From: Salinispira sp.
Lineage (GTDB): Bacteria; Spirochaetota; Spirochaetia; DSM-27196; Salinispiraceae
Reading direction: 5' to 3'
Assembly: GCA_965602015.1 (NCBI GenBank)
Contig: OZ271918.1
Coordinates: 1,920,001-1,984,000 of the forward strand
DNA length: 64,000 nucleotides
Of the stretch, positions 2,802 to 19,120 are shown in pieces. Every line of letters begins with the position of its first letter. Position 1 is the stretch's first letter. Below the pieces are notes generated by a model that worked only from the letters and a program-made list of their open reading frames with translations, ran no database searches and was not told where the DNA came from. The position numbers were made by a program, and so were the translations under genes.

Positions 2802-2864
2802 GCGTTCCCCGGGGAATGACAATCCACCGAGGACATCTTTACTCCATCACAGACTGCGACCTGG

Positions 2865-4344
2865 GGCAAAACTCACAGAACGGGGAGACAGCGCCACAAT
2901 CACCGACACTAAAATCACCATCAACCGGACAGGAACCTACCGCCACTACAGCTGGGACCTGTTAAACCGCCTGGAAAACGTCGAAGAGCTCGATGAACAC
3001 GGCAATCTGGTCGTGATAAAAGAATACGGCTATGATGTGAATAACCTGAGGATATGGGAGAAAAACCGACACGGCCAAATCACCCATTACGTCTTCGACC
3101 ACAAGGGCAACAGAATCGAACGGCACACAGACGAAAAGAGCGAATACTACATCTTCAGAAACCTCCACCACATCGCCAAACGGGTGGTAGACCACAGCAC
3201 CAACACCGAAAAGACCTACTTCTACGGCACAGACCACCTGGGAAGCACCGTGCTGATGACAGACGAAGACGGCAACGAAGTTTTCTCAGCAGAGACCACC
3301 CCCTTCGGCGACTCGGTCTCTGAGTCAGGAGCCATGGCCGACACAGAAAACCTCATGTACACCGGAAAGGACCTAGATGAAGATACCGGGCTGTACTACT
3401 TTAATGCACGCTGGTATGACCCAACGGTGGGTAGGTTTATAAGCGAGGATCCGGCGAGGTTTGGCGCGAACTGGTACCGGTATGCTGCAAGCAATCCCCT
3501 CAAATACTTCGATCCAACCGGACTGAATGAAGTGAGCTGGGATACAACGATCTTCGATGCAGGGGATTATCACACAGATACCCCTGAAAATGAGAATTAT
3601 GAAAACGTAGAAGAAACAACAACAGAGGTTGCCACCTATGAGGAAATTACTGAACAGATCAATCACGTCTCCACTGGTATTTCTGCCCAGGAAACGATAA
3701 CCCAGCAGTCAGAAAAACTCGTTGAACTATCACAACAAAATACCAGTGAGATGACTCTTGATGAATTTCTATCTCACCAGCAGGAGATGCAGGATTTAGC
3801 AAAAGAGTTGTTACAAGGAATCCTGGATTATCGTGCAGCGGGATATAATAGCTCAAATTCAGATGAAAACGAAAATTCTCAGAACAATCAAAACATCGAT
3901 ATCGATAGCCGTGGTTTTATTATCTCTTTTGGCTTCACAGGTTTTATAGGAGCCGGTGGTGGCTCCTCGATATCTGGAGGTATTAATTTTGGTATAGATT
4001 TTAACAACGGGGATGTTTTAATGAATTTCTCTGCAGCCCCAAGCGCAGGTCTATTAGTTGGTGCATCTGGGTTTGCTGGTGGGTATTTAGCTATTACACC
4101 TATGGAAACTGATCCTGATGTCCTTGCTGGCAATTTTCTACAAATTGGTCTTTCTGCGGGTGAAGGAAAAGGAATGGGCATTGATATAGCTCTTCCTTTT
4201 CAGCAGGGTGTTAATCCAACCTTGACTGGATCATACGGTGCTACAATAAAATTCCCGATTCCAGGTGAATTTCATATTTATGGAGGTCAAACAACAGTGA
4301 CTGATTCGATCAAAATATTCGATTTTAGACCATTCCGAAAATGA
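2865..4344 (+). pseudogene. Orphan Rhs cassette 1: 5'-truncated Rhs core, acidic linker and Gly-rich C-terminal putative toxin (ORF track 3013..4344)
   Basis: TDHLGST, YTGKDLDEDTGLYYFNARWYDPTVGRFISEDP, NPLKYFDPTGL. Homology to cassettes 3 and 4 starts near 2865, upstream of the called GTG, with no convincing start or RBS. Confidence 0.88.
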
Positions 4345-4724
4345 TATTTCAAACACTTTTTATGTACTTATCATTCCTGATCGTGCTTCTATCAATAATA
4401 ATAATCAGAAAGAGGAATCAAGCAAAAGCTAGGATCACATCGGAGAAAGCTCAGAAGGGTATTATTTGTGGTGTAAGGTATAATGGGTTGAGCGCTTCAG
4501 CTCCATTTGCATCGCTGAGAATTTTTGAAAATTCGATTCAAGTCAATATTTTAGGTAGGACTGCGCTCTATAAGGATCTAAGTAATCTGGTATCCACTGA
4601 AAAAAAGAAAGGATTATTTGACCTTGGTCTCGAACTAAGATTTGATTCTGGAGAAAAAATAATTATTTGGACAAAATATTCTTATTCGCTTTTTGATTTG
4701 CTAATGGAAATAGAGCATACATGA
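4341..4724 (+). CDS. Putative immunity protein of cassette 1 (N-terminal transmembrane helix)
   Basis: ATGA overlap with the toxin stop, AT-rich, 127 aa, hydrophobic N-terminus. Confidence 0.7.
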   Translation: MIFQTLFMYLSFLIVLLSIIIIRKRNQAKARITSEKAQKGIICGVRYNGLSASAPFASLRIFENSIQVNILGRTALYKDLSNLVSTEKKKGLFDLGLELRFDSGEKIIIWTKYSYSLFDLLMEIEHT

Positions 4725-4728
4725 TCAA

Positions 4729-5642
4729 CCCACAAGACCTGACTTGAGCTGCGCCGGATCCAATCCCGGCGTCAGCTCCAAGTATCCTTCTTATGGGGGT
4801 TGAGCCGGCAAACGAGTTCTTTGAAATACGTCAGTCAGTGACGGACCCATCGAAGAGCATCTTGTTCCCGTAGAGCAAGAACTCTTCTGCTGACCGCTGA
4901 TGCTTGCAGCAGCCTGCAGAAGAGAAAAACGTCAGACCACAAAACGCTTGAAGTCCACCCGGCTGCCGTTGAAGTTGACCAGGTAGCCCACCCGGATGCC
5001 CGAAAGCCTGAGGTAGTTTATGAGCTGGGCTTCCATAACAGCCGTGAGCTTTGAAACGCTCTTGAGCTCGAGAATGACCTTGCCCTCGACCACCAGGTCG
5101 GCAATGTATGCTCCGGCAAGCTCCCCTTTGTAGTACACCGGATAGACCTTCTGCTGTTCCACCGTGAGATTTAACCTCCGGCACTCAATAACCAGCGCAC
5201 CCTCGTACGCACTTTCCAAAAGCCCGGGACCCAGGATGTTGTGCACCGAATACAACGCCCCTACCACCGTGTATGACAGTTCCTTGAAAAGATACTCAGC
5301 CATGCTGACCTCCTTTTTCAAGGAAGCAGTCTCGCAGCGACGAGCGGTCAATGCCCGATAATTGGCGTACCGCAGCCATCATGCATGGCGAGGAACGCCA
5401 ATATGAAGAGCGAAGCGCGGCTTGACCGCGAGGAGCGGAGAGATACACTTGAAAAAAACGGAGGAAGCCAGACAGCTCAAGCCCGTGAAATAAGGCGCGA
5501 ATCCTCGCGCCCCATTCTTTCCTTTCTTACAACATACCATCAGCAGAGAAATCCCTTTTACAAAACTGCCCCGGTCACCAAACCAAATCCGTGAATATTG
5601 GTGCTGATACGTGGTACACCCCAACTCCCTAATACGTGGCTT
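4729..5642. repeat. Conserved structured inter-cassette spacer, copy 1 (hairpin + GxxExxY gene + structured region)
   Basis: Near-identical to 10120-13205 (IS21-interrupted) and 15317-16235; partly matches 17984-18335. Confidence 0.93.
4932..5303 (-). CDS. GxxExxY family protein (PD-(D/E)xK nuclease-like fold), copy 1
   Basis: LGPGLLESAYE motif and ADLVVEGKVILELK; AAGGAGG RBS before the ATG at 5303 (the 5351 start is unlikely). Confidence 0.92.
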   Translation of the reverse strand: MAEYLFKELSYTVVGALYSVHNILGPGLLESAYEGALVIECRRLNLTVEQQKVYPVYYKGELAGAYIADLVVEGKVILELKSVSKLTAVMEAQLINYLRLSGIRVGYLVNFNGSRVDFKRFVV

Positions 5643-5698
5643 ACCAACCTTATCGCTGCTGACCAAAAATCTACAATCTCGGCCAAATCCAATCGGCA

Positions 5699-6315
5699 AT
5701 GATCATCACAGAAGCCGGAAGCGAAGAATGGAAACCCAATCCCCTTCAGCGAAGCCATGGGGTAGTGCAATCCGACGTCCTGGGCACCACACCATTCACC
5801 ATAGACCAGAGGGACCTGGAACTCACCACCACCGCAGACAGCCTGGTCATAGACACCGGCTTCGGCTACACCCTCAAACGCATTGAAATACCCTTTGAGG
5901 CCCTCGATGCAGCCCAGATGAGGCCGGAAACCCTCCAGGTCTATACCGCGCTATACAACAGCGAAATAGCATACGAACGCCAGGAAGAGGCTCACATAAG
6001 CATCAGCCACAACACCGTAACCATCACCTTTCCGGCACCAGTGTTTACCCGCTACGTCAAACTCCATTCAACCGTCCACACCCTCGCTGACGATGGGGAT
6101 GAGCGAAATACTGGTACGATATTCCAGGCCGATGCCAGCGAAATCATCGTCACCGCCATCACCGGGGGCCGCAACGAGTTCTACAACTACACCCCCGACG
6201 GCAACCGCTCCATGCGAAGCATCCTCGCCGGCAGCATGCAGAGTGAACAATACCAGTACTACCCCAACTCAGACCTGCTCCAATACGACGGAACCTACTA
6301 CTATGCATACGATGC
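5699..6315 (+). pseudogene. Orphan Rhs cassette 2, N-terminal fragment cut by IS66
   Basis: 3' part (GRNEFYNYTPDGNRS...YYYAYD) matches the starts of cassettes 3 and 4; ends at the IS66 terminus. Confidence 0.85.
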
Positions 6316-6327
6316 GTAAGCGTCAAT

Positions 6328-7908
6328 TTAAGCCTGCACGATTGACTTCAGCTCCAGTAATTCGTCTTTGATGTTCCAGGGCAGCAGATCTTCCCAGTTC
6401 CCGGAATCCCCAATCTCTGGCGCTTTGGTGAAGACATGCACCAGATACCCATAGGGATTCAGTCCGTTCTGTCGGGCTGTCTCGATAAGCGAAAACATAA
6501 AACAGGAGCTTTCAGCGCCTCCCGGGCTTCCCGAGAACAGCCAGTTCTTTCGGCCGAGAACAAAAGGACGGATTGCATTCTCCGCGCCATTGTTGTCCGG
6601 GGTCAGATGCGGACTCTCTACATATTTCATGACCTTATCCCATTGCGACAGGGCGTAGGTCACCGCCTGCCCGACAGCGCTTGATGGACGAACGCTTAGC
6701 GCTTTCTTTTCGAGCCAGGCTTTGAATCTCTCTGCTACCGGGGCAATGCGGGCTTTGCGCTTCTGGGCAAACTCATCATCACTCAGGTTTTGGCTACGCA
6801 GCTCTTTCTCAATGCGGTAGAACTCGGCGATCTTCGATATGGCCTCATGAGCGCTTCCGGCTTTCTTTGAGGATTTGCCCGCTTCAAAGAATTTCCGGCG
6901 GACATGGGCCATACACCCCACGTGAATAATGTCAGGCCGGTCCTTCAATGTCGTTTCATACCCCACATAGCCATCGGTTTGCAGGTAGCCTGAAAAACCT
7001 GAGAGATAGGCTTTCGCATACTCCGATCCGCGGCTTCGGTGGTAGGCATAATCCACCACCGGTTTCCCAGGCGGACCTCCCCGGGCAAGCCACATATAGG
7101 ACTTGCTGGTGTTGGATTTCTCCGGCTCGTTCATAACCTGAACGGTTGTTTCATCCATTTGAATGACTGGGCCGGATTCTAACTGCTGTTTGAGCAGATC
7201 CTTCAGCGGCTTCAATGCCTGATACGCCTTCTGCTGCCAATTGGACATGTCCTGCCGGCTGATCCTAGCCCCAACCCGCTCAAAGCGCTTTTCCTGGCGG
7301 TAGTACGGCAGGTGATCGACGAATTTATTCTGAATAATGAAGGCCAGAAGCTCCGGGGTCGCAATGCTCTTGGGGATGATGGACGGCGGAACCGGCGCAA
7401 TGCGGAACACCGGTTTGTCTTCATCCCCGGAACCCTCGCAGTTCCGGCAGGCGTACTTGGGCCTGATATGCCGTTCGACGAAAAACTGCTCGGGGATGGT
7501 TTTCAGTTTTTCGCTGACTTCTTCGTCAATTTTGGAAAGCTCGTGCCCGCAGGCGCAGCGTTTCTGGTCTTCTGAGATGTCGTGGATCACATCGACCCTG
7601 GGAAGGTCATCGGATAAAGGCTTTCGCCCCCGCTTCTTCCGCGTATGTGAGGTGACCGTGGTGAGAGAACTGTCGGTTTCCGGCTCATCGGGCGGTGTTG
7701 ACTGAATCTCCCGTTCCTCAAAGAGCATGGCCTGCAGCAGCTCTTCAGCTGATTCACTGCTTCGGGCAAACTTCCGGAACCGGGCCAGCTTGAGCTGTTC
7801 CTGAAGGTCTTCGATTTCCAGTTCCTGCTCTGAAATTCTGGAACCGAGTGCGACTATGTGAGCCTGGACTTCCTCGGGTAACTGTTCAATCTCCGCCGCA
7901 CTCAGCAT
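6328..7908 (-). CDS. tnpC: IS66 family transposase TnpC
   Basis: Leucine zipper, CACG...CRNC zinc ribbon, QMDETT, QTDGY, CMAHVRRKF, DNNGAENAIRP, GRKNWLF. Confidence 0.95.
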   Translation of the reverse strand: MLSAAEIEQLPEEVQAHIVALGSRISEQELEIEDLQEQLKLARFRKFARSSESAEELLQAMLFEEREIQSTPPDEPETDSSLTTVTSHTRKKRGRKPLSDDLPRVDVIHDISEDQKRCACGHELSKIDEEVSEKLKTIPEQFFVERHIRPKYACRNCEGSGDEDKPVFRIAPVPPSIIPKSIATPELLAFIIQNKFVDHLPYYRQEKRFERVGARISRQDMSNWQQKAYQALKPLKDLLKQQLESGPVIQMDETTVQVMNEPEKSNTSKSYMWLARGGPPGKPVVDYAYHRSRGSEYAKAYLSGFSGYLQTDGYVGYETTLKDRPDIIHVGCMAHVRRKFFEAGKSSKKAGSAHEAISKIAEFYRIEKELRSQNLSDDEFAQKRKARIAPVAERFKAWLEKKALSVRPSSAVGQAVTYALSQWDKVMKYVESPHLTPDNNGAENAIRPFVLGRKNWLFSGSPGGAESSCFMFSLIETARQNGLNPYGYLVHVFTKAPEIGDSGNWEDLLPWNIKDELLELKSIVQA

Positions 7909-7950
7909 GGGTGAAATTCTAGCATAAAGGGATTAATCGATGGAAGAGGA

Positions 7951-8298
7951 TTAGTTGCATTCGGCATACTGAACTGCTTTGTGGGCGTGCCAAAAATCAA
8001 TGCCATCGAGCAACATCTTGAGTTCGCCCACAGTGATCTGCCGGGCCTGCTCCTCGGTGTTCGGCCAGGGAAAGCGGTCCTTTTCCAGACGCTTGAGCCA
8101 TAGACAGAATCCGTTGCGGTCCCAGTACACGCATTTGATCAACCGACGGTCCCGGTTGCAGAACAGGAACAGGGAGCCTGACATCGCCGACCGGTTCATC
8201 TGCTGTTCAACAATAACAGACAGACCATTCACCTGTTTGCGCATGTCCGTTACCCCCGGGCGGACATAGATTTCCAATCCGGTGAGATCCAGCATCAT
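7951..8298 (-). CDS. tnpB: IS66 accessory protein TnpB
   Basis: TDMRK, LFLFCNR, YWDRNGFCLWLKRLEKDRFPWP; start at MMLDL, overlapping the tnpA stop. Confidence 0.92.
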   Translation of the reverse strand: MMLDLTGLEIYVRPGVTDMRKQVNGLSVIVEQQMNRSAMSGSLFLFCNRDRRLIKCVYWDRNGFCLWLKRLEKDRFPWPNTEEQARQITVGELKMLLDGIDFWHAHKAVQYAECN

Positions 8299-8597
8299 AC
8301 AAAAGCCGCCAGTACTTCCCGCAGGCGGGCGGAGGAGATTCCATCTGCCAACAGAATGCGAAACCGCCGATCGATCTCGATGATGATTTCCGTCGAACAG
8401 TCTGAGGTGGCAGGTGGCGTGATTCGGACCAACTCGGGTAGCGCTGCTTGGGCGGCCGAAGCCTTTTTTAGCCGCTTCATCCAGTAATGCAGGGTTGAAA
8501 GCTTGATATCCCGGGCCCGACAGAACTCTTTCTGCGTCTGTCCGCTTTCCCGCCACTGGCTAATGACCTCTTGCCACTGTTCAATCTTCGCATCCAT
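8295..8597 (-). CDS. tnpA: IS66 accessory protein TnpA
   Basis: W...WRESGQTQKEFCR...STLHYW helix-turn-helix; first gene of the element. Confidence 0.88.
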   Translation of the reverse strand: MDAKIEQWQEVISQWRESGQTQKEFCRARDIKLSTLHYWMKRLKKASAAQAALPELVRITPPATSDCSTEIIIEIDRRFRILLADGISSARLREVLAAFV

Positions 8598-8668
8598 AAT
8601 TCCTCCAGGTGGAAGAATTATTTCATTTCAGGCTCAGGCTGTGCAGGGCCTGGTAAATTGACGCTTAC

Positions 8669-9254
8669 GTTTGTTCAGGCAAATACTGAAATAGTTATTC
8701 GGCGGGGTGCGCGGGGTACTCCTTACTCATTTCCTTATACACGTTCAGATGGTACAACTATTCAAGTGAAGCACCCAGATGGCGAGTATTATGACGGATT
8801 GCTGGATTTACAAGCTTTCGGAGTTTCATTATTCGATGATCCATTAATTGTACAGACAGTTGCAACTGATAATCTGAAAGATTCAAGAAATGTCATCTAT
8901 GCCCCTGCAGGAAGATATTCAGGAGGTTTATATGATGATCATTATAGCGAAGTTTATGATGAATATATATGGCTCCAAAATCCGGAACTTGGTATAGGAT
9001 TGAATACAGGTGTGTATTTACATTTAGGTAGTAACACACTGTCTGCATTGAGCTGGGCATGTCAGATGCTCTACCGCACTGACTACAATGAACTCTCCGA
9101 TAGGATGAAATCAGGGGGATATCGTTTTGAAGGTAGACGCCCATTTCGTGGTGCAACTGAAGTAAAACCGTCGCACTATATTGATGTTCGAATATATGGA
9201 GATGCACTACCGCCAGAGTCTGAATACAGCTCTCATGGATTTAGTTTTTATTGA
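8669..9254 (+). pseudogene. Decapitated toxin C-terminal domain, L,D-transpeptidase-like (Tlde1/YkuD-type motif)
   Basis: Open frame from the IS66 end; PAGRY...GVYLH-x8-SWAC motif; AT-rich; stop overlaps the next gene. Confidence 0.55.
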
Positions 9255-10054
9255 GGTTAAAATGTATGAAATGTAATTTAAAGACAATTATATTTATAAG
9301 TTTGCTTTTTTCTCTTTTAAGCTGCAACAAGATAAATGCGTTAGATTTAACTGGTAGAGAGTACACAGCTTGGAATATTACGTTCAGATTCCAAAAGACA
9401 GAAGTAATGATTGAACAATATGACGACACTGCATACACAGGACCAACAGGAATTGTAAATTACTCAATTGCTAACAGATCAGGGGTTGACTATTTGATTT
9501 TAGATTCAAATGGTTACGAAGTCGAATATCTAATTATCCAAGATGATTGGTTATTATTTTTATATGATGGAGATCGAAAGGATCCAATATTTATCGGAAT
9601 TACTTCGCACCCGAGTGATTTGGTTGCATTTTCGGTTTTAGGAGATTTGCCGTTAGACTATGAAGCGAGCTCATATTATCAATTTGGGCAAGAAATGTAT
9701 CCCCCCGAAAATCTAGGGCGTATAGAGTTATTTCAGCCTTGGTGTGAAGGAGTTGAAGGTTTTGGCGTCGGAGAAACAATTATTGTCAGAAACGCTGATA
9801 CTACTATCACTCTTTCAAATGGCTTTGTTTCATACTCACGCCCAGAATTATACGAATGGAACAGCAGGATAAAATCTATCAAGGTTCGTTCTTTGTTAAC
9901 CGATGAAAGCTTTATTGTTGATTTAGAGGATACGCCTCACTTACAGTACTTCGTGCTACCTGTAGAAGGCAAATCTGATTATGAAATTACAATTCTTGAG
10001 GTGTATCCAGGGGAGAAATTTGAGGATGCATGTGTGAACTTCATTTTTTCGTAA
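9251..10054 (+). CDS. Putative immunity lipoprotein (probable start ATG 9266); C-terminal beta-sandwich resembling NADase-type glycan-binding domains
   Basis: Signal peptide with lipobox LLSC; WCEGVEGFGVGETI, NGF, NSRIK, ITILEVYPGEKFEDAC motifs. Confidence 0.7.
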   Translation: MRLKCMKCNLKTIIFISLLFSLLSCNKINALDLTGREYTAWNITFRFQKTEVMIEQYDDTAYTGPTGIVNYSIANRSGVDYLILDSNGYEVEYLIIQDDWLLFLYDGDRKDPIFIGITSHPSDLVAFSVLGDLPLDYEASSYYQFGQEMYPPENLGRIELFQPWCEGVEGFGVGETIIVRNADTTITLSNGFVSYSRPELYEWNSRIKSIKVRSLLTDESFIVDLEDTPHLQYFVLPVEGKSDYEITILEVYPGEKFEDACVNFIFS

Positions 10055-10323
10055 GAAAAATTGAAATTCTAATTAATAGCATGCTGCATTTCAGTTCATT
10101 TCTTGTATTGCCGTATACACCCCATAAGACCTGACTTGAGCTGCGCCGGATCCAATCCCGGCGTCAGCTCCAAGTATCCTTCTTATGGGGGTTGAGCCGG
10201 CAAACGAGTTCTTTGAAATACGTCAGTCAGTGACGGACCAATCGAAGAGCATCTTGCTCCGGCCGGGCAAGAACTCTTCTGCAGACCGCTGATGCTTTCA
10301 GCAGCCTGCAGAAGAGAAAAACT

Positions 10324-10695
10324 TCACACTACAAAACGCTTGAAGTCCACCCGGCTACCGTTGAAGTTTACCAGGTAGCCCACCCGCAGCCCAGAAAGCC
10401 TGAGGTAGTTTATGAGCTGGGCTTCCATAACTGGAGTGAGCTTGGAAACACTTTTTAGTTCGAGGATGAGCTTTCCTTCAATTACCAGGTCTGCAATGTA
10501 CGCCCCGGCAAGCTCGCCTTTGTAGTACACCGGATACACCTTCTGCTGTTCCACCGCCAGATTCAGCCTGCGACACTCAATAACCAGCGCACCCTCGTAC
10601 GCGCTTTCCAAAAGCCCGGGACCCAGGATGTTGTGCACCGAATACAACGCTCCCACCACCGTGTAGGACAGTTCCTTGAAAAGATACTCAGCCAT
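10324..10695 (-). CDS. GxxExxY family protein, copy 2
   Basis: 123 aa with 5 substitutions relative to copy 1; AAGGAGG RBS. Confidence 0.92.
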   Translation of the reverse strand: MAEYLFKELSYTVVGALYSVHNILGPGLLESAYEGALVIECRRLNLAVEQQKVYPVYYKGELAGAYIADLVIEGKLILELKSVSKLTPVMEAQLINYLRLSGLRVGYLVNFNGSRVDFKRFVV

Positions 10696-10794
10696 GCTGA
10701 CCTCCTTTTTTCAGGAGGCAGTCTCGAAGTGTCAACGCCGGAATGAAATTGCAGTTTTTCACCGGAGTTAAATTGCAGACTTCCGGCAAATTTT

Positions 10795-11556
10795 TTAGAA
10801 GTCAACGACTCCGATTTTCATTCGATCCTTCATCCGATACGAGTCTCCTTTCAGGCTGATCACATGGGAGTGATGAAGCAGCCGGTCCAAAGTGGCCGTA
10901 GCAACTGCGTCATCAGTCATGATTTCTCCCCACTTCCCGAATACTTTGTTGCTGGTCAGAATGATTGATCCATGCTCATAGCGGGTATTGATCAGCTGGA
11001 AAAACAAGGCTGCCTGCTCAGCATTCAGGTTTTCATACCCAACTTCATCAATCAACAGAACGTGGGGTTTGCCAAACCAGGTCAGTTTGTTTTTCAATCT
11101 TCCCTGATCCCGGGAACGCTGTAATCGTTCAAGCAAATCAAGACAGCTGATGAAATAGGCCGTATACCCATTCATACATGCCTTCTGTCCAAGCGCTGTC
11201 ATGAGGTGCGTTTTACCCAATCCACTGGGACCAAGCAGAATGACATTCTCTTTACGTTCAATGAACGCAAGGGTGGACAGTTCGTTGAACTGCTTGTGTG
11301 TAAGACCGCCTTTCGGCCATGACAGATCAAAGGATTCAAGATTCTTTCCCTGGGGAATTCCTGAAACCTTCAAGCGGGTTTTGGCCATTCGTTCCTTTCG
11401 GGGAATCAGTTCCAGATCAATGAGTTCTCCGATCGCTTCAATCAGAGGCGCATCCTGATTCACCTGGCTTGAGAGAAAACTGTCCAGACCGGCAGCCATG
11501 AAGCTCAAACCCAACTCTTCCATACGGGCTGTAATCATTGTGCTTTTACTAGTCAT
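10795..11556 (-). CDS. istB: IS21 helper ATPase IstB
   Basis: Walker A GPSGLGKT, LLIDEVGY, LDRLLHH, GDSYR. Confidence 0.95.
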   Translation of the reverse strand: MTSKSTMITARMEELGLSFMAAGLDSFLSSQVNQDAPLIEAIGELIDLELIPRKERMAKTRLKVSGIPQGKNLESFDLSWPKGGLTHKQFNELSTLAFIERKENVILLGPSGLGKTHLMTALGQKACMNGYTAYFISCLDLLERLQRSRDQGRLKNKLTWFGKPHVLLIDEVGYENLNAEQAALFFQLINTRYEHGSIILTSNKVFGKWGEIMTDDAVATATLDRLLHHSHVISLKGDSYRMKDRMKIGVVDF

Positions 11557-12803
11557 GAGGCCGCCTCCTGCAGTGCAAACAAGCGGTCGTACTCCCCAGG
11601 TGAGCGGACATCAACATCGGTAGAAACCTTTATCCGTTTTCTTCTCTTGGGTATCCGGTACTGCCTTTTCCAGAGCTCGGTCAGCGCCGCTGAGTGTTCA
11701 GCCAGGTAGAACCGTTGATTTCGCAATTCGAGGTTAAGCATGAAGGTTCGGATGATCTGATCCTCTGATGATACTTCGGCCTCACCGGTGAGCGGATCGA
11801 TACGTACAATTACCTCTGCACCAATGAATTGCGGGTGAACGCTGTACCAGTTGTTTCTCACCCGTACCAGAGATTCACCGGAGACACGCACATTGGTCGG
11901 TTTCCGGTAATCAAACGGCTGCGTTGGTAAGGGGGTAAGGAAAGCCTTTTCATGCGTAAAGCGTTCTGATCGGCTTTCATTGAGCCCGCCGATGACTCTG
12001 TGGCTGATATCCTCGCACCAGGTGATGACTGCTTCGTTTAACTCAATCAGTCCAGCTGGCAGTGCTTTGTGCTCGATCCAGAAGTTGTTCTCGTAGAACT
12101 GGATGAACCGTTCGACCTTTCCTTTGGTCTGAGGCCGGCGGACCTGGCATCGGCGGGGTGTGAATCCATAGTGCCGGGCCAGAGACAGCAGGTGCTTGTT
12201 GACCTGCCATTTCTCCTCTGCGGCCTGGTAGATAAAGGCGGTTTTCATGTTGTCGTACAGGATTTCTTCCGGCACCCCGCCAAAATATGTGAATGCCAAT
12301 ACGTGGCACATCAGAAAGGTGGCCATGTCCATGCTCGTGGTATGAATGACAAACGGCATTCTCGAGTAGCCGAATACCATGACAAAGGCATAGAGTTTCT
12401 GCCACCGTCCGTCCACCAGCTGTTTTCCCAGGATTTTCCAATCCACCTGAGCCTGGTAGCCCGGTTCGGTTTCGAACCGGATAACTGCCTGTTTTGTGAT
12501 ATCTGCAGCCTTCCTGGCAGCATAATCCCTGAGGATTGTGACCCCGCCATCGTATTTCTGTTTTCGCAGGTTCCTCAACAGAACCTCCCGATTGAAGGAC
12601 GGGTCTTCCTCGAGTATAGTGTCGATGTAGGGTTTGAACGGATCGAGCTTGCTCGTGTAATTCCGCTTCTTTCGAGACCTTGAAGGCTCTGCAAGGTAGT
12701 AGTGAACCATGCGTTCACTTTTTCCCAGGGCTTCGGCGATCTGACCGATTCTCTTACCCTGTTGTTTCAACATCTGTGCTTCATGCATCAGTAGCTCCAG
12801 CAT
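11553..12803 (-). CDS. istA: IS21 transposase IstA
   Basis: RFETEPGYQAQVDW, YDNMKT, PQTKGKVER, N-terminal HTH. Confidence 0.95.
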   Translation of the reverse strand: MLELLMHEAQMLKQQGKRIGQIAEALGKSERMVHYYLAEPSRSRKKRNYTSKLDPFKPYIDTILEEDPSFNREVLLRNLRKQKYDGGVTILRDYAARKAADITKQAVIRFETEPGYQAQVDWKILGKQLVDGRWQKLYAFVMVFGYSRMPFVIHTTSMDMATFLMCHVLAFTYFGGVPEEILYDNMKTAFIYQAAEEKWQVNKHLLSLARHYGFTPRRCQVRRPQTKGKVERFIQFYENNFWIEHKALPAGLIELNEAVITWCEDISHRVIGGLNESRSERFTHEKAFLTPLPTQPFDYRKPTNVRVSGESLVRVRNNWYSVHPQFIGAEVIVRIDPLTGEAEVSSEDQIIRTFMLNLELRNQRFYLAEHSAALTELWKRQYRIPKRRKRIKVSTDVDVRSPGEYDRLFALQEAAS

Positions 12804-13248
12804 TTTAGGGCGTGCTCCTTACTTGAATGATTGTGTGGTAACAACCATTACAAGGTAGCATCGCCCTTTTTTTCAAGCCGGAGTCTGCAATTTTAGTCCG
12901 GTGATTTCCTGCAATTTAGCACCGGTGATGACACGAAGCGACGAGTGGTCAACGCCCCTGAGCGAAGCGCGGCTTGACCGCGAGGAGCGGAGAGATACAC
13001 TTGAGAAAAACGGAGGGAAGCCAAGGCAAAAAAGCCTGAAAATGTCGGGCAAATGCGGTGCGAATCCTCGCGCCCCATTCATTCCTTTCTTTCAACATAT
13101 CGTCAGCAGAAAAATCCCTTTTGCAAAACCGCCCCGGTCACCAAACCAAATCCGTGATTATTGGTGCTGATACGTGGTAGACCCCAACTCCCTGATACGT
13201 GGCTTTCTCTCATCCCCCCGACTTTAGAAAATTCTCACCGCCGAACTT

Positions 13249-13925
13249 ATGGGCCGCAACGAGTTCTACAACTACACCCCCGACGGCAACCGCTCCATGC
13301 GAAGCATCCTCGCCGGCAGCATGCAGAGTGAACAATACCAGTACTACCCCAACTCAGACCTGCTCCAATACGACGGAACCTACTACTATGCCTATGATGA
13401 GAACGGCAACCTCACAGAACGGGGAGACAGCGCCACAATCACCGGCACTAAAATCACCATTAACCGGACATTAACCTACCGCCACTACAGCTGGGACCTG
13501 TTAAACCGCCTGGAAAACGTCGAAGAGCTCGATGAAGAAGGCAATCTGGAAGTAATAAAAGAATACGGCTATGATGTGAATAACCTGAGGATATGGGAGA
13601 AAAACCGACACGGCCAAATCACCCATTACGTCTACGACCAAAAGGGCAACAGAATCGAGCGGCACACCGACGAAAGAAGCGAATACTACATCTTCAGAAA
13701 CCTCCGCCACATCGCCAAACGGGTGGTAGACCACAGCACAAACACGGAAAAGACCTATTTCTACGGCACAGACCACCTGGGAAGCACCGTGCTGATGACA
13801 GACGAAGACGGCAACGAAGTCTTCTCCGGCGAAACCACCCCCTTCGGCGACTCGGTATCCGAATTAGGACCCATGGCCGACACAGAAAACCTCATGTACA
13901 CCGGAAAGGACCTGGATGAAGATAC
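13249..13925 (+). pseudogene. Orphan Rhs cassette 3, truncated by IS3; toxin and immunity genes lost
   Basis: Nearly identical to 16279-16955; breaks at ...KDLDEDT where the IS begins. Confidence 0.9.
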
Positions 13926-13975
13926 TGAACCGCCCCGGCTTTACCGGAGACAAAATCTTGTGAGAGGATGGAGTC

Positions 13976-14302
13976 ATGGTAAAGAAAAACAGCAGGTTTT
14001 CTGAGGAAGTTAAGGAGCGGGCAATCCGCATGGTATTCGCCGCCAAAGGTGAATATGATTCTCAGTGGGCCGCAATTGAGTCGATAGCTGAAAAGATAGG
14101 CTGTACTGCAGAGACGTTACGGCGGTGGGTTCGCCAAGCCGAGAAAGATAATGGTAGTCGGGAGGGACTTACAACCGACGAGAAGAAGCGAATCAAGGAG
14201 CTCGAGCGGGAGAACCGGGAGCTCAAGAAAGCCAATGAGATTCTACGTCTGGCTTCCGCATATTTCGCGAAGGCGGAGCTCGACCGCCAACACAAGAAAT
14301 AG
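13976..14302 (+). CDS. IS3 transposase OrfA
   Basis: HTH SQWAAIESIAEKIGCTAETLRRWV, leucine zipper, AELDR. Confidence 0.92.
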   Translation: MVKKNSRFSEEVKERAIRMVFAAKGEYDSQWAAIESIAEKIGCTAETLRRWVRQAEKDNGSREGLTTDEKKRIKELERENRELKKANEILRLASAYFAKAELDRQHKK

Positions 14303-15198
14303 TCTGCTTCATTGATGAACACCGCGATGACTATGGGGTCGAGCCGATTTGTACTCAGGTGCCAATCGCTCCTTCGGTGTACTACGAACAGAAAAAGCGA
14401 GTAAAACACCCTGAAACAGCTCCCGCAAGGGTAAAGCGCGATGAAATCCTGAAGCCAGAGATCCAGAGGGTTTGGGATGAGAATTATGAGGTTTACGGCG
14501 TTCGCAAGGTCTGGCACCAGCTGAAGCGAGAAGGATTCCAGATCGCACGATGTACCGTGGCCCGTCTCATGGCTGTCATGGGGCTTAAAGGCGTCATACG
14601 AGGCCGCAAGGTGCGAACCACAGTACCGGACCCGAAAAATGAACGTCCGCTCGATTTGGTGCACAGGGAATTCAGTGCCGACCGTCCGAATCAGCTGTGG
14701 GTGGCGGATTTCACTTATTGCGCGTCTTGGGTGGGTTTTGTATATGTGGCATTTATCATCGATGTATTTTCACGAATGATCGTCGGATGGCGTGCCTCGA
14801 GGTCCATGAGCGCAGAGCTGACGCTGGATGCTCTGGAACAAGCCCTGTGGGCAAGGCAACCTGAAAATGGGCTGATCCACCACAGTGATCGTGGGAGCCA
14901 GTATCTGTCAATCCGGTATTCTGACCGCTTAGCAGAAGAAGGCATTGCCCCATCTGTTGGGAGTGTAGGCAGCTCATATGACAACGCGCTGGCTGAAACC
15001 ATAAACGGACTGTACAAATCCGAAATGATCTACCGTAAAGGACCGTGGAAAAACCTGGATGCTATTGAGGCTGCTACGCTGGAATGGGTAAGCTGGTACA
15101 ACAATAAACGGATTTATGAAATCCTGGGATATATGCCTCCGGCAGAGTTTGAGAAGGCATATTATGATCAACTGCAAGACGCAGCCAGCGGGCTGTAG
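14299..15198 (+). CDS. IS3 transposase OrfB (DDE integrase core), in the -1 frame relative to OrfA
   Basis: YGVRKVW, WVADFTY, HHSDRGSQY, YDNALAE; homology extends upstream of the called GTG (FIDEHR..YGVEPIC). Confidence 0.9.
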   Translation: MVCFIDEHRDDYGVEPICTQVPIAPSVYYEQKKRVKHPETAPARVKRDEILKPEIQRVWDENYEVYGVRKVWHQLKREGFQIARCTVARLMAVMGLKGVIRGRKVRTTVPDPKNERPLDLVHREFSADRPNQLWVADFTYCASWVGFVYVAFIIDVFSRMIVGWRASRSMSAELTLDALEQALWARQPENGLIHHSDRGSQYLSIRYSDRLAEEGIAPSVGSVGSSYDNALAETINGLYKSEMIYRKGPWKNLDAIEAATLEWVSWYNNKRIYEILGYMPPAEFEKAYYDQLQDAASGL

Positions 15199-15316
15199 TC
15201 ATACAAAACACTCTCCGGGATTCCCGGGGCGGTTCAGTCTGAAACACATTGCAAAAAAAAGATGTTGCTCTAAAGTTCATAAACAATCATTTATCATGAT
15301 TACCATAAAGCATTTT

Positions 15317-16235
15317 CCCCATAAGACCTGACTTGAGCTGCGCCGGATCCAATCCCGGCGTCAGCTCCAAGTATCCTTCTTATGGGGGTTGAGCCGGCAA
15401 ACGAGTTCTTTGAAATACGTCAGTCAGTGACGGACCAATCGAAGAGCATCTTGCTCCGGCCGGGCAAGAACTCTTCTGCAGACCGCTGATGCTTTCAGCA
15501 GCCTGCAGAAGAGAAAAACTTCACACTACAAAACGCTTGAAGTCCACCCGGCTACCGTTGAAGTTTACCAGGTAGCCCACCCGCAGCCCAGAAAGCCTGA
15601 GGTAGTTTATGAGCTGGGCTTCCATGACCGGCGTAAGCTTAGAAACGCTCTTGAGCTCGAGAATGACCTTGCCCTCGACCACCAGGTCGGCAATGTATGC
15701 TCCGGCAAGCTCCCCTTTGTAGTACACCGGATAGACCTTCTGCTGTTCCACCGTGAGATTTAACCTCCGGCACTCAATAACCAGAGCCCCCTCGTACGCG
15801 CTTTCCAAAAGCCCGGGACCCAGGATGTTGTGCACCGAATACAACGCCCCTACCACCGTGTATGACAGTTCCTTGAAAAGATACTCAGCCATGCTGACCT
15901 CCTTTTTCAAGGAAGCAGTCTCGCAGCGACGAGCGGTCAATGCCCGATAATTGGCGTACCGCAGCCATCATGCATGGCGAGGAACGCCAATATGAAGAGC
16001 GAAGCGCGGCTTGACCGCGAGGAGCGCAGAGATACAATGAAAAAACGGAGGGAAGCCAGACAGCACAGCTCAAGCCCGTGAAATAAGGCGCGAATCCTCG
16101 CGCCCCATTCATTTCTTTCTTTCAACATACCGTCGGCAGAGAAATCCCTTTTACCAAACTGCCCCGGTCACCAAACCAAATCCGTGAATATTGGTGCTGA
16201 TACGTGGTAGACCCCAACTCCCTGATACGTGGCTT
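15317..16235. repeat. Inter-cassette spacer copy 3
   Basis: Same hairpins and layout as copy 1. Confidence 0.93.
15521..15892 (-). CDS. GxxExxY family protein, copy 3
   Basis: 123 aa from the ATG at 15892, with AAGGAGG RBS. Confidence 0.92.
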   Translation of the reverse strand: MAEYLFKELSYTVVGALYSVHNILGPGLLESAYEGALVIECRRLNLTVEQQKVYPVYYKGELAGAYIADLVVEGKVILELKSVSKLTPVMEAQLINYLRLSGLRVGYLVNFNGSRVDFKRFVV

Positions 16236-16278
16236 TCTCTCATCCCCCCGACTTTAGAAAATTCTCACCGCCGAACTT

Positions 16279-17745
16279 ATGGGCCGCAACGAGTTCTACA
16301 ACTACACCCCCGACGGCAACCGCTCCATGCGAAGCATCCTCGCCGGCAGCATGCAGAGCGAACAATACCAGTACTACCCCAACTCAGACCTGCTCCAATA
16401 CGACGGAACCTACTACTATGCCTATGATGAGAACGGCAACCTCACAGAACGGGGAGACAGCGCCACAATCACCGGCACTAAAATCACCATTAACCGGACA
16501 TTAACCTACCGCCACTACAGCTGGGACCTGTTAAACCGCCTGGAAAACGTCGAAGAGCTCGATGAAGAAGGCAATCTGGAAGTAATAAAAGAATACGGCT
16601 ATGATGTGAATAACCTGAGGATATGGGAGAAAAACCGACACGGCCAAATCACCCATTACGTCTACGACCAAAAGGGCAACAGAATCGAGCGGCACACCGA
16701 CGAAAGAAGTGAATACTACATATTCAGAAACCTCCGCCACATCGCCAAACGGGTGGTTGACCACAGCACAAACACCGAAAAGATCTACTTCTACGGCACA
16801 GACCACCTGGGAAGTACCGTGCTGATGACAGACGAAGACGGCAACGAAGTCTTCTCAGCAGAAACCACTCCCTTCGGCGACTCGGTATCAGAATTAGGAC
16901 CCATGGCCGACACAGAACACCTCATGTACACCGGCAAGGACCTGGATGAAGATACCGGGCTGTACTACTTTAATGCACGGTGGTATGACCCGGGGACCGG
17001 GCGGTTTATAAGCGAGGATCCTGCACGGTTCGGTTCGAACTGGTATCGGTATGCAGCGAGCAATCCCCTCAAATACTTCGATCCAACCGGATTGAATGAA
17101 GTGAGCTGGGGTACGAGCATATTCGATGCCGGGGAATTTCATACAGAGAGTAGTGAGAACTATGAAAACGCAGAAGAAACAACGACAGAAGTTGCTACCT
17201 ATGAGGATCTTACTGAGCAGATCAATCACGTCTCCACTGGTATCTCTACCCAGGACACGATAACCCGACAGACAGAAAAATTAGCTGAGCTATCACAACA
17301 AGATACCAGCGGCATGACGATTGATGAATTTCTTGCCTTCCAACAAGAGATGCAGGATTTAGCGAAGGAGCTGCTCCAAGGAATCCAGGATTATGAAGCT
17401 GCGGGGTATGACACTGATAGAGTGCTCACTGGTTTAGCACTAAACGAATCAAATGGGCACCAAAGCGCTTCGTGGGAAATAAATCGAAATACAATATGGG
17501 GCATAGCTGAAATTATCGGTGGTGGAACAGTAATTGGATTATCATGGGTTTCAGCAGCTTCGCTGGCACCTACAACAGGGGGGACATCAGCGATGGTTGG
17601 CTACAATGGCACATTATTTGGGAGCGCTCTATTGGCACATGGATTAAACAGAGTAACTGGAAATACAAACCAAACTGTAATCGAGGATTTAAAGCAAATC
17701 ATTACGCCGCCAATTGCAGAACTTGGAAAAATAAGGACGGAATAG
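16279..17745 (+). CDS. Orphan Rhs cassette 4: truncated Rhs core, acidic linker and hydrophobic C-terminal putative toxin
   Basis: YD-type repeats, Rhs core signature, DPTGL, then a unique Gly/Ala-rich hydrophobic tip. Confidence 0.88.
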   Translation: MGRNEFYNYTPDGNRSMRSILAGSMQSEQYQYYPNSDLLQYDGTYYYAYDENGNLTERGDSATITGTKITINRTLTYRHYSWDLLNRLENVEELDEEGNLEVIKEYGYDVNNLRIWEKNRHGQITHYVYDQKGNRIERHTDERSEYYIFRNLRHIAKRVVDHSTNTEKIYFYGTDHLGSTVLMTDEDGNEVFSAETTPFGDSVSELGPMADTEHLMYTGKDLDEDTGLYYFNARWYDPGTGRFISEDPARFGSNWYRYAASNPLKYFDPTGLNEVSWGTSIFDAGEFHTESSENYENAEETTTEVATYEDLTEQINHVSTGISTQDTITRQTEKLAELSQQDTSGMTIDEFLAFQQEMQDLAKELLQGIQDYEAAGYDTDRVLTGLALNESNGHQSASWEINRNTIWGIAEIIGGGTVIGLSWVSAASLAPTTGGTSAMVGYNGTLFGSALLAHGLNRVTGNTNQTVIEDLKQIITPPIAELGKIRTE

Positions 17746-17975
17746 TGATAGATTTTTACTTAATCTCAGGCACAATAATAATTATAATTTTCATGTCGGT
17801 TGGGCTTTTAAAATCAACTCCTGACAAAATTGATAAAACTCGTGATGATTTAGATAAAAATCAGAAGGAGAAACTAAAAAGAGTGGCGAAGATATCCGCA
17901 ATAATTGGATTTATTATGGCCACACTTATGCTTATTCTTCTAGTTATCGGTTTTTTGCTTCCGAGTTCAAAATAG
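17745..17975 (+). CDS. Putative two-transmembrane immunity protein of cassette 4
   Basis: GTG overlapping the toxin TAG (TAGTG); two hydrophobic segments; 76 aa. Confidence 0.65.
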   Translation: MIDFYLISGTIIIIIFMSVGLLKSTPDKIDKTRDDLDKNQKEKLKRVAKISAIIGFIMATLMLILLVIGFLLPSSK

Positions 17976-17983
17976 CTGAGCCC

Positions 17984-18335
17984 CCCCATAAGACTGACTT
18001 GAGCTGCACCGGATCCAATCCCGGCGTCAGCTCCAAGTATCCTTCTTATGGGGTTGAGCCGACAAACGAGTTCTTGGACATACATCAGTCAGTGACGGAC
18101 CAATCGAAGTGCGGTTTGACCGCGATGAGCTGAGAGATACAATGGGAAAATCCGGAGGGAAGCCAGACAGCACAGCCCAAGTCATAGGGAGTAAGGCGCG
18201 AAACCTCGCGCCCCATTCATTCCTACTCTTTCAACCTACCGTCAGCAGAGTATTCACTTTTGATAGGCGGGCCCAGTCACCAAACCCAATACGTGAAAAT
18301 GGGTGGGCATCCGTGGTAGCACCAAACTTCCTGAT
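17984..18335. repeat. Inter-cassette spacer copy 4, lacking the GxxExxY segment
   Basis: Left and right spacer arms are joined at a single CGAAG (18105-18109). Confidence 0.9.
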
Positions 18336-18346
18336 TTGAATTAAAA

Positions 18347-19120
18347 TCAAACAGGCGCCTGACGGCGAATTTCATACATCAGAATACCCGCCGCCACCGA
18401 AACATTGAACGAATCAATTTGACCGCCGCTTGGGATAGTCAGCGTCTGGTCACAGTGGCGGGAAACCTCCCGGGAAGGCCCCCTGCCCTCACTGCCGAGA
18501 ATAAGGGCGATTTTCCCCGAAAGCCTCACCTGTGACGGCGCTGAACCGTTGAGATCTGCAGAGTAAACCCAGAAATCCCGCTCTTTTAACTGTTCGATTA
18601 CTCGTACAAGGTTGGGAACGTAAATCACCGGAGTATGGTGACTGGCTCCGGCGGAGACCTTGCGAACCGTGTCATTTACCTGGGCAGAGCGCTTCTTTGG
18701 CAAAACAAGGGCTTCAACATCGAATAAATTAGCCGAACGTAAAATAGCCCCCAGGTTATGAGGATCGGTTATGCCGTCGAGAATAAGAACCAGGGGATTG
18801 GCTCTCTGACTCCCCTCGAGAATGGACCAGAGATCACTGTCAGCCCTTCTCTTCTCAAGATACTGGGTCGAAACCGCGAGCATAAGATGACGAAGACCCT
18901 TCGGCAGGGGAGAACCCAGAAGCTCGCTCGCTCGCTTCGCGAAAGCCCCTTCATCGAGATGCCGTATTTTTATATTGTCCTGCCCCGCCCTTTTTAGTAT
19001 TTCCTTTTCACGACGATTGAGAGACGGAGAAACAAGCAACTCGCCCCCTCCCCCCGATCGGGAACGCAGGTACTCCTCTATGTCGTGAAGGGAAAAGAGG
19101 ATGCTGTCATTGCTGGGCAT
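18347..19120 (-). CDS. rlmB: 23S rRNA 2'-O-methyltransferase, TrmH/SpoU family (RlmB-like)
   Basis: LDGITDPHNLGAILRSA, LGSEG.G, SFNVSVAAGI. Confidence 0.85.
   Translation of the reverse strand: MPSNDSILFSLHDIEEYLRSRSGGGGELLVSPSLNRREKEILKRAGQDNIKIRHLDEGAFAKRASELLGSPLPKGLRHLMLAVSTQYLEKRRADSDLWSILEGSQRANPLVLILDGITDPHNLGAILRSANLFDVEALVLPKKRSAQVNDTVRKVSAGASHHTPVIYVPNLVRVIEQLKERDFWVYSADLNGSAPSQVRLSGKIALILGSEGRGPSREVSRHCDQTLTIPSGGQIDSFNVSVAAGILMYEIRRQAPV

Follow-up and report, generated by a model that had tools for sequence, protein, structure and literature searches.

A candidate variant-core attC site at the borders of orphan Rhs toxin modules in a Salinispira genome

The GTT core of the integron recombination sites attC and attI has so far been treated as invariant. 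With the integrase IntI1, changing the first GTT nucleotide of one site, along with the base that pairs with it on the opposite arm, was reported to lower recombination 10^3-10^4-fold, and the same mutation in both partner sites to restore it fully (PMC2811028). All integrons characterised by 2010 had kept GTT, in the account of that paper probably for the exchangeability of cassettes between integrons. Here, we describe a 70-nt hairpin that stands at the downstream border of orphan Rhs toxin modules in a 64,000-nt stretch of a Salinispira sp. genome (contig OZ271918.1, positions 1,920,001 to 1,984,000; hereafter the window) and that carries a compensated CTT in place of GTT. A first-pass annotation, made from the letters of the window alone, had called it an attC-like hairpin with a non-canonical core. 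From sequence comparison, we estimate at somewhat under one in two (about 45%) the probability that the hairpin is a variant-core attC site by which the resident integrase moves Rhs cassettes within a private pool.

The minus-strand consensus proposed for the hairpin was found at 4729-4798, 10120-10190, 15317-15387 and 17984-18053 (copies 1 to 4, given here on the + strand), and folding reproduced the described succession of outer stem, unpaired spacer, inner stem with two extrahelical bases, and loop. The outer stem has 9-10 bp, the annotated gaps of 6 and 7 nt appear as an internal loop of 6/7 nt, an 8-nt loop sits atop a 6-bp top stem, and the two bulged bases of the inner stem (T and C) belong to its 3' arm on the + strand. 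Folding of 91-nt stretches as single-stranded DNA gave -18.7 to -24 kcal/mol (z -3.6 to -5.6); RNA folding agrees with the DNA fold (z -3.6 and -4.3) and is strong on both strands. The 15-nt word of the inner arm occurs in the window three times exactly and once with one mismatch, and at up to three mismatches it has 10 matches against 2.5 expected, a number reached by none of 100 shuffles. The genome (one contig, 3.87 Mb) holds eight hairpins in total, every one inside one of three Rhs arrays, where they form direct repeats with 2-4 copies per array. The AAG/CTT core of the annotation was read in all eight, including copy 1 with its variable-side arm CTTGTGGG. The two stem substitutions found among the eight copies both give a G-U wobble on the minus strand (chance expectation 1 in 4); copy 4 has a single stem change, which is compatible with a wobble pair on the minus strand alone.

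From 29 real attC sites of this genome, we built a covariance model, R1, and ran it unfiltered on the window and the two other arrays (94 kb). Each of the eight hairpins was matched by R1 from end to end (model positions 1-120), in every case on the strand equivalent to the bottom strand, at only 10.6-18.1 bits (E 0.017-2.6 per 94 kb), copies 1 to 4 scoring 10.6, 15.4, 17.0 and 18.1 bits; seven of the eight stood above every unrelated match of the run. The annotation had held that lack of covariance-model similarity would speak against an attC site; similarity to our own model is present in every copy, weakly. In the R1 alignment, ATAAG-A falls on ATAAC-A, CTTGAGCTGC on CTTGAGCgGC and CTTAT on GTTAT, and G[T]CAGCTC[C]AAG falls on G[T]CcG(T)CTC[G]AAG with the bulged bases in the same columns. 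The bulged T and the second bulged base also coincide with those of a real attC site (G[T]CAG..CTC[C]AAG vs A[T]CAG..GTT[G]AAG). Model R2 combined seven hairpins of this genome, one site each from the loci L017 and L027 of other genomes and two from L032, in an alignment fitted to R1. Genome-wide at E<=0.01, R2 returned only the eight hairpins (69.7, 76.5 and 75.1 bits for copies 1 to 3; copy 4 was also matched), two reverse-strand echoes and the 29 real attC sites, with 150 of 1061 candidates scored; since R2 includes one canonical and two L032 sites in an R1-fitted alignment, its recovery of real attC sites shows specificity, not independence.

The conserved Rhs fragment, used as a query, retrieved 66 loci in other genomes, mostly metagenome-assembled genomes (MAGs) of spirochaetes and Bacillota, with at most 49% amino acid identity for whole-length matches; R1 was run unfiltered on 13 of these loci and with default filters on all 66. 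Sites recognised by the attC models lie behind homologous modules of an Rhs tail and a small open reading frame (ORF) in five other spirochaete genomes. R1 identified them in L040 (8050-8137, core CATAAC...GTTATG, starting at the stop of ORF 7373-8050), in L027 (8008-8071, canonical GTT core, about 160 nt past the small ORF behind the Rhs fragment), in L032 (2358-2431, with no clear AAC/GTT, about 90 nt past the small ORF) and in two loci of one MAG (L014 11245-11307 and L017 10651-10713; CCATAAT...ATTATGG, starting just ahead of the stop of a 154-aa ORF), and R2 added one in L063 (7296-7351, TAAT...ATTA core). GTT, ATT and CTT cores each carry the complementary change on the other arm. The ATT-core sites have in common with the window hairpin a TTGGAG(T/C)TGAC first arm and a CA(A/G)CTCAA return arm, with compensated stem changes, and by this likeness are plainly homologous to it. 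In a family alignment of 11 rows, which was fitted to this structure and leans towards it, 15 of 21 pairs show change on both sides, a count that none of 500 shuffles reaches, and 87% of cells are paired. The core pair reads G-C in seven rows, C-G in two, U-A in one and A-U in one. The two ATT-core sites of MAG ce77 lie within a 99.5% identical 2.5-kb duplication and are therefore silent on how junctions form. All five genomes with such sites have an IntI above the NCBIfam cut-off, against 15 of 40 relatives of the same order (G001-G040), and in L040 a distance of about 5 kb, within which a 55.5-bit attC site lies, separates intI from the Rhs module of the locus.

This genome also has its own integron. 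No tyrosine recombinase lies in the 64-kb window, in keeping with the annotated absence of an integrase, and the genome search for IntI-like or Xer-like recombinases that the first-pass annotation recommended brought up five tyrosine recombinases, one of which is an integron integrase. This IntI (C1:1742714-1743973; TIGR02249 379.5 bits vs a cut-off of 265) looks intact and lies 176 kb upstream of the window. Within about 9 kb of intI there are 9 attC sites, with 13 small opposite-strand ORFs lying among them. A motif scan found about 30 canonical attC sites in the genome (94-117 nt, core ATAAC...GTTAT), grouped into an array at 1.7166-1.7422 Mb, a cluster at 3.4406-3.4561 Mb and a lone site in the Rhs array at 3.34 Mb; among the 29 that were aligned, 12 of 32 pairs show compensatory change. 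The second cluster (C1:3440647-3456057) has at least 14 canonical sites and no integrase nearby. Judged from gene order, the + strand is the bottom (recombining) strand of the canonical sites in both clusters, and the + strand of the hairpin is predicted to be its recombining strand as well. An abstract of 2013 gives Treponema as the only spirochaete clade known to have integrons (PMC3607928). The divergent recombinase in trans that had been postulated for the hairpin is not needed, since the genome encodes an ordinary IntI and the data for IntI1 show tolerance of a matched first-nucleotide change (PMC2811028).

The hairpin is not a free-standing short repeat; it forms the first 70 nt of a longer repeat of ~919 nt, termed R, the first copy of which spans 4729-5642 and aligns with 15318-16235 at 95% identity over 921 columns. 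Further copies lie at 15317-16235, at 10120-10726 plus 12960-13205 (split by an insertion sequence (IS) of the IS21 family) and at 17984-18112 plus 18105-18335. Most of them contain a minus-strand gene of the GxxExxY / PDDEXK_3 nuclease family (4932-5351 in the first copy; PF13366 127 bits, TIGR04256 135 bits; copies at 10324-10695 and 15521-15940), whose stop lies ~130 nt upstream of the hairpin and which adjoins six of the eight hairpins, leaving two without an adjacent intact GxxExxY gene. The fourth copy (17984-18335, compared with 15317-16235) lacks exactly positions ~132-683, the GxxExxY segment, which in the other copies is flanked by imperfect ~26-nt direct repeats (CGAAG.GC...TTG.C..G..GAGC); the missing segment and the flanking repeats suggest that the GxxExxY gene may be a separate insertion into R.

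Between the repeats, the + strand ORFs are C-terminal fragments of Rhs proteins (Rhs_assc_core, 75-79 bits) that end their core in DPTGL and continue into mutually unrelated tails, and the last + strand ORF ends 4-66 nt before the hairpin. A unit between two hairpins measures ~2.6 kb without IS elements and is mostly conserved, varying only at its Rhs toxin/immunity end. The annotated scheme of cassettes with a hairpin at every boundary thus stands in so far as a hairpin closes one end of each Rhs module, but the units are not short and unique. Similarly, the divergence reported within a few bases beyond CTT(A/G)TGGG was seen on one side of the hairpin; on the other, similarity runs for ~919 nt and then into the conserved Rhs fragment.

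We propose that the hairpin would act as an attC-type site with a changed core pair, folded from the + strand and recombined by the resident IntI, with the crossover at AA|G of that strand. The cassette would be the unit between two hairpins, comprising a hairpin, a forward GxxExxY gene and, in reverse orientation, an Rhs-tail/immunity operon served by a promoter-like site of its own; it would leave as a circle and enter again at a different hairpin. Since the first core nucleotide has to match in both partners, CTT sites would swap only with CTT sites and not with the ~30 GTT sites or with attI, and the toxin modules would thereby be kept as a private pool. The junctions fit insertion at the hairpin. 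Eight different DNAs abut it at one nucleotide, 7-8 nt past the predicted crossover, and the internal units hold ~200 nt (a linker and the first 154 nt of the Rhs fragment) that are missing from the partial units at the array ends, an excess that is explained by circle insertion at the hairpin in the founding unit and not by unequal crossing-over of that unit. More tentatively, spirochaete integrases in general might run such private pools, in which Rhs cassettes with a compensated first-nucleotide switch (CTT in this genome, ATT in two others and GTT elsewhere) would not be mixed with the ordinary array.

Several observations weigh against a working variant-core attC site. As to likeness, the R1 scores are weak, the eight copies are nearly identical and so amount to about one observation, and the limit on R2 given above applies. 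When the base pairs and unpaired bases of the hairpin were shuffled with its structure preserved, 155 of 3000 shuffles were as similar to real attC sites as the hairpin itself (p≈0.05; single run, one scoring scheme). Short hairpins scattered over four contigs of another genome (G043; loci L084, L086, L088 and L089; at least four copies) combine an attC-like inner stem and bulges (TTAACCTGC...G[T]CAGGTT[C]AA) with an outer stem that is GC-rich and lacks AAC/GTT; they may represent a further core variant or a repeat of no relation, and they show that such inner stems are not exclusive to attC sites. The hairpin misses two defining features of attC sites: the GTT/AAC triplet, with AAG/CTT in 8 of 8 hairpins where the real sites have AAC/GTT, and unique DNA on both sides, since one of its sides is occupied by the 919-nt repeat and the conserved Rhs fragment. 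The units are also unlike usual cassettes in their length and in being conserved for the most part, with variation confined to the Rhs-tail end. The attC architecture claimed in the first-pass annotation is thus partly supported, by the model match, the bulge positions, the homologous GTT sites and the covarying core, and fails on the core triplet and the two-sided unique DNA; recombination at the hairpin is a prediction. We consider that the hairpin very probably descends from attC sites.

Other objections concern genomic placement and distribution. IntI is 176 kb away, the arrays adjoin neither intI nor attI, and we know of no CTT-core attI-like partner. None of the three arrays has its outer ends at a hairpin; something other than the hairpins put them in place. 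On its left, each variable part is bounded by the Rhs core end (DPTGL), where homologous exchange usually has its border. In the two ATT-core genomes, the orientation of the site relative to the Rhs genes is opposite. A BLAST search with the hairpin and its flank gave no match in any of 40 relatives, and pattern scans of metagenomes for the CTT core returned 0 and then 3 matches; two of these fall within a 916-aa ORF and show no fold, and the third folds without a 3' outer arm. Finally, contigs from four sequencing runs of one sample, compared with 15100-18400, contained only junctions already present in the genome.

The main alternative is that the hairpin is a relic attC site (for example of an old GxxExxY cassette) that is no longer recombined, with homologous recombination between Rhs core and R having grown the arrays and swapped the tails, in the manner of other orphan Rhs/CDI arrays, and with the core change having frozen the site. 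The conserved flank of ~1.8 kb (R plus the Rhs core fragment) offers ample homology for this, and the arrays are littered with IS elements, which suggests decay; the distant IntI, the DPTGL borders, the array ends away from hairpins and the lack of new junctions in the sequenced sample all point the same way. A frozen site, however, leaves unexplained why, in every one of the eight copies, the core change on one arm is matched by a compensating change on the other and why a third compensated variant, ATT/AAT, exists in other genomes, a pattern which suggests that pairing at the cleavage site is under selection. Where R has diverged most, its hairpin is 94% identical vs 85% for positions 1-131 of R as a whole, and the single-nucleotide junctions of eight different DNAs and the ~200 nt by which internal units exceed what unequal crossing-over of the founding unit can give are likewise against it. 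We therefore regard a relic as rather unlikely.

Distinctly improbable, in our view, is an element acting at the RNA level, a terminator or 3'-end stabiliser between the convergent immunity-like (+) and GxxExxY (-) genes. Its position would suit such a role, 4-66 nt past the last + strand ORF and ~130 nt past the GxxExxY stop, as would the strong RNA fold on both strands and the two stem substitutions, both G-U on the minus strand (for two events, a chance of 1 in 4). A terminator scan made no call at the hairpins, however, and no T/U tract is found on either side; Rfam gave no family at the hairpins, either in the window at the gathering threshold or in 15200-16400 at E<=10. An RNA element would also leave the attC-like bulges, the covarying core pair and the link with integrase-bearing genomes unexplained. 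attC sites can influence transcripts too, and the RNA and recombination roles are not exclusive. A site for an enzyme other than IntI (a Xer-like or phage-type tyrosine recombinase, or the adjacent GxxExxY PD-(D/E)XK protein) is the least probable of all, since to the four further tyrosine recombinases of the genome, the GxxExxY gene beside six of eight hairpins and the G043 hairpins with their similar inner stem and no AAC/GTT are opposed the likeness specifically to attC sites, the two hairpins without an adjacent intact GxxExxY gene, and the lack of any GxxExxY-family match in ORFs neighbouring the homologous sites checked in L014, L017, L040 and L032.

The whole array of the window (2802-18346) lies between purD and a gene of a SpoU-family methylase and starts 63 nt past the purD stop. 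In a same-genus genome, the purD and methylase stops are 14 nt apart, which marks 2802-18346 as a 15.5-kb insertion; the same-genus genome G002 lacks this Rhs family and has distant Rhs core ends only, so that a close comparison of arrays was impossible. Each of the three arrays begins at one and the same point of the Rhs fragment (~position 155; 2865 in the window, C1:3788419 and 3349903 in the genome), and its other end falls no more than about 100 nt from where R ends. Two of the left array junctions have an extra ~12 nt in common (CCGAGGGAAACC). In the array at 3.34 Mb, the segment C1:3338984-3340326 (L003 1985-3327) holds the lone canonical attC site (94.6 bits) between hicAB-like and vapBC-like pairs, beside an IS256-family copy; the segment stands where the hairpin and most of R would be expected, so that ordinary integron cassettes have entered this Rhs array.

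Both intact Rhs fragments of the window are followed by a small ORF that is immunity-like by position and has no family match. The first fragment (3013-4344, + strand; TIGR03696 78.6 bits) ends its core in DPTGL before a variable toxin-like tail, with homology to the other fragments from 2865, and the ORF behind it (4341-4724, +) has its stop codon 4 nt ahead of hairpin 1. The second (16279-17745, +; 488 aa, TIGR03696 75.2 bits) is complete and belongs to the sole IS-free unit (15388-17983); the small hydrophobic ORF that accompanies it (17544-17975, +) ends 8 nt before hairpin 4. Three units are broken by IS elements. An Rhs fragment at 5699-6319 (+), which has a longer and different N-terminal leader (variant B, 5642-6166), is interrupted by an IS66-family element (6328-8597); an IS21-family element (IstA/IstB, 10795-12803, minus strand) is inserted in R copy 2; and an IS3-family element (13976-15198), in which an ALIL frameshift pseudoknot lies at 14257-14373, interrupts the fragment at 13249-13925 (+). 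Behind the IS66-family element, at 8571-10054, two ORFs occupy the place of the Rhs tail and immunity gene, one with an NADase-type discoidin domain (PF25302 / NF047619), the other without a family match.

Upstream of the complete Rhs fragment, a promoter-like site (TTGACC-16-TACAAT) followed by a GC hairpin with a T-rich tail is conserved at 16011-16104 (+); the promoter-like site recurs at 18116-18143 and the whole arrangement at 18116-18224, again preceding Rhs sequence, and it could be a regulated leader. All seven Rhs core ends of the genome lie within the three arrays, in frames of 443-549 aa, and the genome contains no full-length rhs gene and no RHS_repeat match at E<=0.001. These toxin tails thus have no obvious delivery-competent parent gene here; in the related MAG of L014, a 2312-aa Rhs ORF stands ahead of the orphans. 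A group II intron domain V, a diversity-generating retroelement and an HsdS-shufflon were also considered for the locus and were dropped when its ORFs proved to be Rhs fragments, GxxExxY genes and IS elements.

If the variant-core attC reading is correct, natural compensated CTT and ATT cores tied to one class of cargo would mean that the 'common currency' of GTT, which the 2010 mutagenesis paper held to be kept only for cassette exchangeability between integrons (PMC2811028), can be abandoned to isolate a cassette pool. Integrons would also be tied to the diversification of polymorphic Rhs toxins, which is usually ascribed to homologous recombination, and the hairpins would be both a site-specific route to toxin diversity and a natural counterpart of the 'a la carte' site specificity that was obtained by engineering in 2010. 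The idea of a private pool can be tested with established integron recombination assays. A full-text search, with most subscription journals outside its reach, found no paper linking attC sites with Rhs or YD-repeat modules.

Among described systems, the attC sites of sedentary chromosomal integrons (59-base elements) are closest, the ~30 sites of this genome among them. The hairpin resembles them in its imperfect palindrome, where an unpaired central spacer parts the R box from an L box bulged on one arm and where the top is variable, and its arrays resemble theirs in direct orientation, in unique DNA a few bases past the core and in the presence of IntI in the genome. It differs from them in its AAG/CTT core, its length (70 nt vs 94-117 nt), its central loop (6/7 vs about 1/1), its 2.6-kb mostly conserved units, the position of its arrays away from intI and attI, and its weak covariance score. 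The engineered first-nucleotide mutants of attCaadA7 and attI1 (Frumerie et al. 2010, PMC2811028) carry the same kind of complementary G1/C3' change on both arms; as described there, they are laboratory constructs tested with IntI1, whereas the change seen here is natural, fixed in eight copies and associated with one type of cargo, with an activity that is only predicted.

The cargo itself compares with the orphan Rhs and contact-dependent inhibition (CDI) arrays described by Poole et al. (2011, PMC3150448), in which tandem C-terminal toxin fragments keep a piece of the core and are each followed by a small gene; in relation to that description, this genome differs in having no full-length rhs gene and in having an attC-like site at the downstream border of every module. 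In the rAID-1 clusters of Bacteroidales (10.1101/471110), orphan immunity and toxin-related genes likewise form arrays, separated by intergenic repeats that the authors call reminiscent of integrons. There, as far as the text available to us goes, a XerD-family recombinase lies at the array and no relation to attC or IntI is claimed, whereas in the present genome the repeats match attC models and a true IntI is encoded, away from the array.

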